The position numbers and the translations under genes are program-made. Below are positions 40,663 through 41,338 of a DNA stretch of 64,000 bases, one piece after another. Each line of letters begins with the position of its first letter. Position 1 is the first letter of the stretch. The notes under the pieces are model-generated. The model had not been told where the DNA came from. It saw only the letters and a program-made list of their open reading frames with translations, and searched no databases. The stretch comes from a bacterium (GTDB lineage Bacteria; Patescibacteriota; Minisyncoccia; Minisyncoccales; UBA10102), in the NCBI GenBank assembly GCA_030647485.1, contig JAUSJT010000001.1, positions 76,947 through 140,946 of the forward strand, in the 5' to 3' direction.

Positions 40663-40813
40663 TGTTTTGGGTTATCCACATTGACACTATGTGCTGCAGG
40701 TGAGAAAATAATATAAGACGTTGCGGGTAGTAAAAATGCGGTCGATGCTATTCGCCAGTGTACTATATCGTTGAACATATTTTCTCGACACAATTCGGGA
40801 ATACAATATACCT

Positions 40814-40852
40814 ATGGCAAAAAAGAAAGGAGGAAAGAAGAAGAAGAAATAA
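40814..40852 (+). CDS. 12-codon Lys-rich upstream ORF (MAKKKGGKKKKK), candidate leader peptide
   Basis: ATG GCA AAA AAG AAA GGA GGA AAG AAG AAG AAG AAA TAA. Stops 16 nt before the first hairpin arm. Translation is unproven. Confidence 0.3.
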   Translation: MAKKKGGKKKKK

Positions 40853-40868
40853 CAATTGTCTTCTCTGA

Positions 40869-40947
40869 ACAATCCCGTTTCTGAAAAGAAGCGGGATTGT
40901 TTTTTTAGAACAATCCCGCTTCTCCAAAGAATCAGGGTTGTTTTTTT
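40869..40947 (+). promoter_or_regulatory. Four-segment alternative-hairpin element (two tandem terminator hairpins, attenuator-like) upstream of speH
   Basis: Seg1 40869-40882 pairs with seg2 40887-40900 (14 bp, GAAA loop, U6). Seg3 40910-40923 pairs with seg4 40928-40941 (weaker, U7). Seg2 and seg3 are perfectly complementary over 14 bp. Confidence 0.5.
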
Positions 40948-40972
40948 CTTATAAAATGATACACTCAATGCT

Positions 40973-41338
40973 ATGCGGCAGATACAGAGAAGAATTTCTC
41001 GCGTTGGAGTCCATGTCATAGCCGATTTCTGGGGCGGGAGAGTTATTAAAAGTACGCGAGAGTTGAAAACCCTTCTCGCAAGAGCCGCAAAAAAAGGGGA
41101 GAATACTCCTTTGAAATTCGCCCTACACAAGTTTTCTCCGCAGGGCATCACAGGAGTCGTGCTCCTGGCGGAATCGCACATTGCTCTCCATACGTGGCCG
41201 GAGTTTAAATATACCGCAATAGACATTTTTACATGCGGTAAAAAATCAAAGCCCGAGGAAGCGCTCAAATTTCTCCAAGGAGAGCTTCGGCCCAAGCGGA
41301 TGCAGGTTAGAAAGATAAAACGGGGGAATGCATTGTAA
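40973..41338 (+). CDS. speH: S-adenosylmethionine decarboxylase proenzyme (small, SpeH-type)
   Basis: 121 aa. Self-processing site context VLLAESHIALHTWPE and DIFTCG. Confidence 0.9.
   Translation: MRQIQRRISRVGVHVIADFWGGRVIKSTRELKTLLARAAKKGENTPLKFALHKFSPQGITGVVLLAESHIALHTWPEFKYTAIDIFTCGKKSKPEEALKFLQGELRPKRMQVRKIKRGNAL

Follow-up and report, generated by a model that had tools for sequence, protein, structure and literature searches.

A putative micro-gene for a poly-cationic peptide, with its terminator duplicated, between murB and speH in a member of the Patescibacteria

What does a lysine-rich open reading frame (ORF) of only twelve codons do in front of a gene for S-adenosylmethionine (AdoMet or SAM) decarboxylase? 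The question is raised by a 64,000-nucleotide (nt) stretch of contig JAUSJT010000001.1 (assembly GCA_030647485.1, positions 76,947 to 140,946; Patescibacteriota, Minisyncoccales), hereafter called the window, in which the gap between murB and speH holds such a micro-ORF followed by four segments that can pair with each other in alternative ways. The original prediction read this arrangement as a polyamine-responsive, ribosome-mediated attenuator of speH. Comparison with related genomes led us to a different reading, to which we assign a little better than an even chance, namely that the locus carries an independent gene for a poly-cationic micro-peptide that is ended by a duplicated intrinsic terminator. 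The features on which this question turns are as follows (window positions).

Gap between murB and speH, 310 nt, forward strand: holds a promoter, a leader, the micro-ORF and two hairpins
40814 to 40852, forward strand: micro-ORF encoding MAKKKGGKKKKK, 12 sense codons plus TAA
40869-82, 40887-900, 40910-23 and 40928-41, forward strand: segments 1, 2, 3 and 4
40867 to 40906, forward strand: terminator 1 (segments 1:2), a stem of 14-16 base pairs (bp) with GAAA loop and U-run, -24.3 kcal/mol, z -8.6
40908 to 40947, forward strand: terminator 2 (segments 3:4), a decayed copy of terminator 1, -12.1 kcal/mol
40973 to 41338, forward strand: speH, S-adenosylmethionine decarboxylase of 121 amino acids (Pfam PF02675, E = 3e-34)

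The ORF, the four segments, the speH ATG at 40973 and the 310-nt gap are each present in the sequence as first described. Two details need correction: the ORF, which reads ATG GCA AAA AAG AAA GGA GGA AAG AAG AAG AAG AAA TAA, holds 8 and not 9 Lys in its 12 codons, and the second U-run, given as U7, is U6 or U7 by choice of the end of segment 4. Pfam identified the flanking genes as MurB and AdoMet decarboxylase, and a homologue search placed the homologues of SpeH in the Patescibacteria. When both strands of the window were scanned, only one ATG-initiated ORF was found that has 9 or more codons and a lysine plus arginine (K+R) share of 55 % or more, and the Lys-rich ORF at this locus is therefore more than chance. 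Together with the terminator structure that follows, it was rightly recognized as a real element, and its conservation across relatives (see below) gives it the appearance of being selected and translated.

The four-segment layout proved to be of a different nature. Segments 1-4 represent a 41-nt direct repeat that is present twice (40855-95 and 40896-936; 78 % identical), and exact copies of the arms occur in the 64-kb window at this locus only. Segment 2 can indeed pair with segment 3, as proposed (-25.7 kcal/mol on folding, or -40.5 kcal/mol for a nested fold combining 1:4 and 2:3, with fold energies at z -3.3 to -8.9 relative to shuffles), but this complementarity is an automatic by-product, because the hairpin was duplicated in tandem. 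The 41-nt insertion was seen in the window and in an identical short contig only; the 1:2/2:3/3:4 topology is unique to this genome, and five related lineages have one hairpin. In all relatives, this single hairpin stands at the position of terminator 1, with stem sequences that differ and pairing that is kept, as the alignment shows for three lineages (L004, L005, and L009). Terminator 1 would accordingly be described as the ancestral terminator of the micro-gene. While a simple consensus terminator scan missed both hairpins, folding and a scan for hairpins followed by a T-run detect both. Hairpin 1:2 displays what defines an intrinsic terminator, that is, a G+C-containing hairpin with a U-run that is kept despite sequence change, and it is a complete, strong terminator rather than a pause hairpin. 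Nor could a stalled ribosome mask segment 1, because the ORF stops 16 nt ahead of it (the stop codon ends at 40852, segment 1 starts at 40869, and the Lys codons lie 17-50 nt 5' of it). A textbook-looking four-segment attenuator can arise from the plain duplication of a terminator, which may serve as a warning for annotation.

That the hairpins merely end the murB transcript was considered and rejected, since in two relatives (L005 and L010) murB is followed by a terminator of its own ahead of the promoter of the unit, by which we mean the promoter, leader, micro-ORF and terminator taken together. The hairpins after the ORF thus belong to this unit and not primarily to murB. The extra terminator-like hairpins follow the murB stop and precede the promoter of the micro-gene, at 3690-3735 in L005 and at 1050-1085 in L010. 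The window has no such terminator, so that murB read-through would end here at the terminators of the micro-gene.

Around the ORF, the alignment reveals what appears to be a complete small gene, whose parts in the window are given below.

40681 to 40709, forward strand: micro-gene promoter with -35 TTGACA at 40681-86, a 17-nt spacer, TG at 40701-02 and -10 GAAAAT at 40704-09
40723 to 40755, forward strand: leader hairpin 1 with 5' arm GCGGGUAGUA, loop AAAAUGCGGUCGA and 3' arm UGCUAUUCGC
40782 to 40801, forward strand: leader hairpin 2 (clade-specific), UUCUCGA / UCGGGAA with loop CACAAU
40858 to 40866, forward strand: GUCUUCUCU, a pyrimidine tract that follows the stop codon and is complementary to the purines at the 3' end of the ORF

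The comparison set consisted of five lineages with SpeH proteins 70-83 % identical to that of the window and the gene order murB-gap-speH-secA, whose gaps were aligned. Common to all are a TTGACA / TG-n-GAAAAT promoter just past murB, a leader of about 100 nt, a micro-ORF, one terminator hairpin, and TGATA(C/T)ACT shortly before speH. The micro-gene promoter has 10 of 12 consensus matches with the TG present and is invariant in the 6 lineages; a transcript start near 40716 is predicted. The peptides of the relatives are MAKKRGGKKKKR and MAAKKKGGKKKKK, the latter resulting from an in-frame GCA insertion. Between lineages, the identity from promoter to ORF stop amounts to 90-92 % as compared to 73-84 % for the coding sequences of murB, speH, and secA, and the unit therefore appears to be under stronger constraint than its neighbours.

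Leader hairpin 1 contains three G-U pairs and is valid only in RNA of the forward strand, and such frequent G-U pairs favour a forward-strand RNA over a DNA operator. Based on its position, GGUCGA loop, and CUAUUYGC arm, it most probably corresponds to the family hairpin GCAAAUAG-yGGUCGA-CUAUUUGC described below; the family covariance model R1 does not detect the longer-looped hairpin of the window. In leader hairpin 2, one-sided changes keep the pairs (U-G to U-A, A-U to G-U) in L005 and L009. Pairing of GUCUUCUCU with the end of the ORF puts the stop codon into the loop of a small hairpin (minimum free energy structure of 40836-40907). Several other interpretations of the leader were discarded. 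A leaderless micro-ORF transcribed from the -10 element TACAAT (40803-08) is contradicted by its last T, which is C in most relatives, and a protein-coding leader, as annotated in L011 (33-amino-acid gene), by frames that differ between lineages. None of the models for signal recognition particle RNA, 6S RNA, the raiA motif, and the T-box matched, and a T-box would need a much longer leader. Within its micro-ORF, the clade of the window also carries AGAAAGGAGG (40823-40835), a perfect extended Shine-Dalgarno-like run without a start codon at a usable distance 3' of it, which other clades lack.

Is the unit then specific to speH? The search for Lys-rich ORFs upstream of speH in related genomes, which had been suggested as a check of the original prediction, found them to be widespread in the Patescibacteria. 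When 80 speH loci from species-representative genomes were scanned by script for K/R-rich ATG-ORFs upstream, all hits were located on the speH strand and 0 on the opposite strand in 435 kb, and no such ORFs were present in non-Patescibacteria speH loci, including those of Omnitrophota and archaea. Examples of the encoded peptides are MAKKKKKKK, MAKKKAKKKKKK, MAKRKKKRKGTVRKRKATKRKKTNRKKKAKGRKRKR, and a version of 57 residues with KRKTT repeats. The genes are arranged in the order murB, micro-ORF, (hpf), speH, (bpsA), speE, secA, and the unit was found in 32 of the 34 loci with murB upstream of speH, six of which the filter had missed. A separate metagenome scan, which relied on the leader-hairpin pattern alone, retrieved 83 loci; a poly-K/R ORF lies 24-91 nt 3' of the hairpin in 77 of 80 evaluable ones, and murB lies upstream in 69/76. 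In these hairpin-fetched loci, the first recognized downstream gene is hpf (36), speH (10), secA (7), or another gene (14), and some loci consist of murB, the unit, hpf, and secA without speH. In turn, many speH genes are devoid of the unit. Judging from this gene order, murB on the upstream side is the constant partner of the unit, the gene downstream changes from locus to locus, and the unit is not specific to speH. The proposed polyamine link is thereby retained only in part: family-wide, the cluster often holds speH, speE, and bpsA, but the unit is not restricted to speH. None of hpf, speE, and bpsA is present in the window itself.

The anatomy of the unit was deduced from about 86 distinct versions from Patescibacteria. 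An own promoter (TTGACA / TGnRAAAAT) is found in 78/83 modules. The leader hairpin covaries, with 95.8 % of cells paired, double changes in 5/8 pairs, and 1/500 shuffles as good, as calculated from 18 in-register sequences that had been obtained independently of the hairpin; with an earlier, misregistered alignment (A2), 76-159 of 500 shuffles were as good and covariation was not significant. The spacer that follows is AU-rich and lacks a Shine-Dalgarno sequence. The ORF is represented by 70 distinct sequences of 8-58 codons, almost all Lys/Arg (55-85 % K+R), which always end with K or R and then TAA or TAG. Its second codon is GCA, GCT, GCC, GTA, or CCA, with synonymous variation among GCA/GCT/GCC, and Lys is encoded by AAG in 55 % of cases as compared to 20 % in flanking long genes. 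ATG and the in-frame TAA/TAG bracket the purine tract exactly at its ends in every case, and 17 of the 18 ORFs of at least 20 codons carry stops in an alternative frame. Since start and stop are in frame in essentially all independent loci, while a third would be expected by chance, the frame is taken as selected. The stop codon is followed by a pyrimidine consensus aaUCUUCUU, and complementary runs of at least 6 nt occur in 57 % of modules vs. 13 % of shuffles. A terminator-like hairpin with T-run is present in 69/77 modules, with a stem that mostly starts 7-16 nt past the stop (median distance about 11 nt in the family and 15 nt in the window), energies of -13 to -41 kcal/mol, and U7-8. Neither terminator arm has a conserved alternative partner, so that the family is without an antiterminator.

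Matches to established families were not obtained. In Rfam, no family was reached by the window, the best being PyrR (28.3 bits; gathering 54) and mir-515 (28.7 bits; gathering 68), and 12 related loci gave nothing at E <= 0.01 in Rfam 15 besides sub-threshold noise (miRNA models, PyrR, Thr leader). A 36-amino-acid member gave no match at E <= 10 in Pfam, NCBIfam, and PDB. Neither the unit nor the speH leader discussed further below is described in the literature searched, which is an incomplete library.

How, then, does speH start? The gap was thought to hold no convincing promoter in front of the gene, which could not be upheld, as a conserved extended -10 element TGaTACACT is located 7 nt 5' of the ATG.

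40938 to 40965, forward strand: inferred speH promoter with TTGTTT at 40938-43, a 16-nt spacer and extended -10 TG-a-TACACT at 40957-65

The -35-like TTGTTT is the tail of hairpin 2, and TGaTA(C/T)ACT recurs in all 6 lineages at this place. The element has the form known for leaderless genes (TGnTAnnnT 5-9 nt before the start, conserved in relatives). In the family, a terminator tail GGGG-TTGTTTTTTT, about 10 nt, TGnTAnnnT, a few nt, and then the ATG of hpf or speH follow each other in 27/61 modules, and in 8 further modules the -10 is situated inside the terminator loop. The same tendency is visible in the window as a whole, where TANNNT precedes the ATG by 4-9 nt in 12 of 32 long ORFs, compared with 9.7 % of control ATGs, and a Shine-Dalgarno-like motif is found in 2/32 (gene starts in point are 2265, 6533, 36981, 46308, 54140, 59200, and 60851). 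This suggests that leaderless mRNAs may be widespread in this genome, and speH itself would be transcribed independently and without a leader. In four loci (L034 1790-1870, L036 1803-1890, L041 1769-1850, and L031 1794-1860), the hpf promoter is found within the loop of the terminator hairpin (TTGAAA/TTGCAA, 17 nt, TGnTAnACT), and the G-rich 3' arm of the hairpin precedes the ATG of hpf by 8-15 nt. In many other loci, the tail of the terminator, TTGTTTTTTT, is at the same time a -35-like element.

A candidate for a dedicated control element of speH is found elsewhere in the group. Where hpf separates the unit from speH, a distinct speH leader was recognized in 61 distinct instances (L011 2895-3020; L013, L019, L022, L045, L055, L115, L152, and about 50 more loci). 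Its outer helix GUUAAYCGC / GCGRUUAAC is 99.4 % paired, with compensatory changes in 8/9 pairs and 0/500 shuffles as good, and encloses an invariant CUCUUUGUUUUU as well as 1-3 variable hairpins. CUCUUUGUUUUU is complementary to speH codons 3-7 (AAAAACAAAGAG) over 12 bp, fully standard in 20 of 21 cases and with one mismatch in the other, and this helix is also the RNAalifold consensus helix. No Rfam match was found for this leader in the 12 related loci. It looks like a riboswitch-type translational switch specific to speH, which the clade of the window has lost, and it is a better candidate than the unit for polyamine or SAM-linked control. The presence of a separate, dedicated speH leader in most relatives argues that the unit is not an attenuator of speH.

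Taken with the promoter ahead of it, the favoured micro-gene would work in the following way. Transcription would begin at about 40716 from the near-consensus promoter and give an RNA with a structured leader, including the hairpin with the GGUCGA loop. Translation, independent of a Shine-Dalgarno sequence, would yield a poly-cationic peptide of very small size (MAKKKGGKKKKK in the window and 8-58 residues in other members), and an intrinsic terminator beginning about 15 nt past the stop codon would end the transcript. The 41-nt duplication added a second, weaker copy of the terminator, which probably acts as a back-up and would also halt read-through from murB, as murB is not separated from the unit by a terminator in this genome. 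Finally, speH would start at or beside its ATG, from an extended -10 promoter overlapping the terminator T-run. The parts, their conservation, the reading frame, the duplication, and the gene order are seen in the sequences and their comparison; the ends of the transcripts, translation of the ORF, and the importance of its product over the act of translating it are inferred. Considering the chemistry of the peptide and the hpf and polyamine genes in its neighbourhood, its likely role would be that of a polycation binding RNA, ribosomes, or DNA.

Several points weigh against such a gene. For a functional product, a low-complexity peptide of 12 residues whose length varies in the family is unusual; it has no Pfam, NCBIfam, or PDB relative and thus no tie to a function, and eight longer peptides have no exact match in a collection of 15 billion proteins. 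The enrichment of AAG could reflect pausing codons instead of the avoidance of A-runs. The arrangement in L094, where one unit lies before hpf and another before an AdoMetDC-like gene (AdoMetDC, AdoMet decarboxylase), is easier to reconcile with a role in cis than with an independent gene. Moreover, the stop codon is 7-16 nt away from the terminator stem in most modules, a range that lets a coupled ribosome suppress termination in E. coli (PMC4824070).

The last points lead to a rival that we consider unlikely, namely a translation-coupled attenuator without an antiterminator, in which a ribosome that trails RNA polymerase closely along the poly-Lys ORF and comes to sit at the stop codon would melt the hairpin of ORF end and pyrimidine tract, crowd the base of the terminator 7-16 nt away, and lower termination, so that read-through into hpf, speH, or secA would report on the capacity for translation, be it Lys-tRNA, polyamines, or free ribosomes. 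In the window, a blocked hairpin 1 would free segment 2 for segment 3 (-25.7 kcal/mol for that pairing) and disable hairpin 2 too. Stop codon and stem are close to each other at a spacing that varies rather little (a median of about 11 nt, with 15 nt in the window), and in E. coli a coupled ribosome strongly represses terminators that lie closer than about 10-17 nt to a stop codon (PMC4824070). Likewise in keeping with such coupling are the post-stop tract, which is conserved and complementary to the ORF end, an ORF rich in AAG (the minority codon in these genomes), and the position of the unit at the head of a ribosome/polyamine cluster with its duplication before two such genes in L094. However, the terminators are strong (-13 to -41 kcal/mol, U7-8), it is the upstream murB that is constant and the downstream gene that varies, and the downstream genes have own promoters overlapping or within the terminator. 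In read-through RNA, the terminator stem would take up part of the start region of hpf. The direction of the regulation is puzzling as well, as slower translation would give less hpf, and the whole scheme presumes coupling of transcription and translation in these organisms.

The classic four-segment, polyamine-responsive attenuator dedicated to speH, with which the inquiry started, has become highly improbable. Its segments and energies are real, its ORF is Lys-rich and conserved, and polyamine genes are frequent neighbours, yet its layout is a duplication private to this genome, segments 1:2 form a full terminator that would act before segment 3 is made, the ORF ends 16 nt before segment 1, and a conserved speH promoter lies past hairpin 2. 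In the wider family, the unit mostly precedes hpf, speH is sometimes absent from the neighbourhood, and speH elsewhere has its own separate leader. Three outcomes had been named in advance as speaking against this model, that is, a separate start of speH beyond the hairpins, hairpins that simply act as tandem terminators of murB, and an arrangement conserved in no relative; two of them are encountered at the sequence level. Improbable, though less so, is a unit acting mainly as RNA (a small RNA, sponge, or protein-binding RNA) in which the open frame is incidental. A purine-only tract is free of stops whatever the frame, conservation of the leader hairpin is accompanied by covariation, promoter and terminator delimit a discrete RNA of about 130-250 nt, and the window clade carries a perfect complement of the anti-Shine-Dalgarno 16S tail (AGAAAGGAGG). 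Against this stand an ATG and TAA/TAG that are in frame round the tract in 77/80 independent loci (a third by chance), longer members that hold T-bearing codons and are open only in this frame, the synonymous variation of the second codon, and the lack of an Rfam match.

How does the unit compare with known systems? With the trpL, hisL, pheL, and thrL attenuators it shares a very short ORF, a run of codons for one amino acid, and an intrinsic terminator close after; formally, the segments of the window also allow three pairings that exclude each other. In contrast to these classical attenuators, it has no conserved antiterminator, hairpin 1:2 is itself a terminator, the ORF is clear of segment 1 and ranges from 8 to 58 codons, and the downstream genes hpf, speH, and secA are unrelated to lysine supply, with a promoter of its own for the gene downstream. 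Out of five hallmarks of that class, the clustered codons of one amino acid are seen (8/12 Lys; 55-85 % K+R in the family), and four are missing, namely a conserved 2:3 pairing that excludes a sole terminator 3:4, a ribosome masking segment 1, a promoter-free stretch before the regulated gene (as far as the sequence tells), and downstream genes in the pathway of the sensed amino acid.

Tiny ORFs upstream of polyamine-pathway genes are also known as polyamine-responsive upstream ORFs, such as MAGDIS of eukaryotic AdoMetDC and SpeFL of E. coli, in which specific peptides stall the ribosome and a single gene is targeted. The micro-ORF differs from them by its low-complexity poly-Lys/Arg nature, its variable length, and a partner that is more commonly hpf than speH, so that a consistent link to an AdoMetDC gene is not found (hpf 36, speH 10, secA 7). 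Another group to consider are tiny poly-basic ribosome-associated proteins with conserved sequences, for example, bTHX, bS22, the mycobacterial 24-amino-acid large-subunit protein, and eL41. The similarities comprise 10-60 residues with 55-85 % Lys/Arg, a start with 'MAK...', a strong promoter, the neighbour hpf, and a structured leader as possible autoregulatory site. Unlike these proteins, the micro-peptide is of low complexity and highly variable length, and it has no detectable sequence relation to any of these known families.

The likeness to terminator suppression of the pyrBI type by a coupled ribosome near the stop codon (Roland et al., 1988, as cited in PMC4824070; Li et al., 2016, PMC4824070) lies in a stop codon within about 7-16 nt of the stem (at most about 17 nt), a range in which a trailing ribosome could reduce termination in E. 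coli. In pyrBI, the leader ORF runs through the attenuator. The micro-ORF, by contrast, stops ahead of its terminator, the terminators are much stronger, and there is a separate downstream promoter. With tandem intrinsic terminators, the window has in common two units of hairpin and U-run, the second being weaker; it differs from them in that its pair stems from a recent 41-nt duplication, as a consequence of which the hairpins can cross-pair, too (segments 2:3).

Beyond this locus, we tentatively propose, at somewhat less than even probability, that the element is clade-wide and new and represents either a genetically encoded polycation, a peptide counterpart of polyamines that would act on ribosomes or nucleic acids together with hpf and the polyamine genes, or an antiterminator-free, ribosome-sensing attenuator of hpf-speH-secA. 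The latter, if true, would imply gating by the passage of ribosomes through poly-lysine, influenced by polyamines and Lys-tRNA. Patescibacteria account for a large share of bacterial diversity and combine tiny genomes with unusual ribosomes and almost no experimentally known regulation. The unit is conserved beyond the surrounding enzymes, yet it is missing from gene calls, from collections of proteins, and from libraries of RNA families; it may exemplify how genes that are very short and of low complexity escape gene callers. Its promoter, covarying hairpin, and unannotated status make it a candidate for ribosome, polyamine, or dormancy biology.

Some minor observations concern the diversity of the units. 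In some lineages, two poly-basic micro-ORFs occur in tandem within a single unit (L050 964-1154; L118, with two ORFs; L094, L108, and L168), and several micro-peptides have Cys tails (RRSCCR, GCCK, RRGCR). On the reverse strand of L094 (1300-5300), murB, a first unit, hpf, a deoxyhypusine-synthase-like gene, a second unit, a divergent AdoMetDC-like gene, and secA follow each other. In the window, positions 40742-40758 and 40965-40981 show a direct similarity of 14/17 nt between TCGATGCTATTCGCCAG (loop and 3' arm of the leader hairpin) and TCAATGCTATGCGGCAG (start of speH), which is weaker in relatives and may be due to chance.

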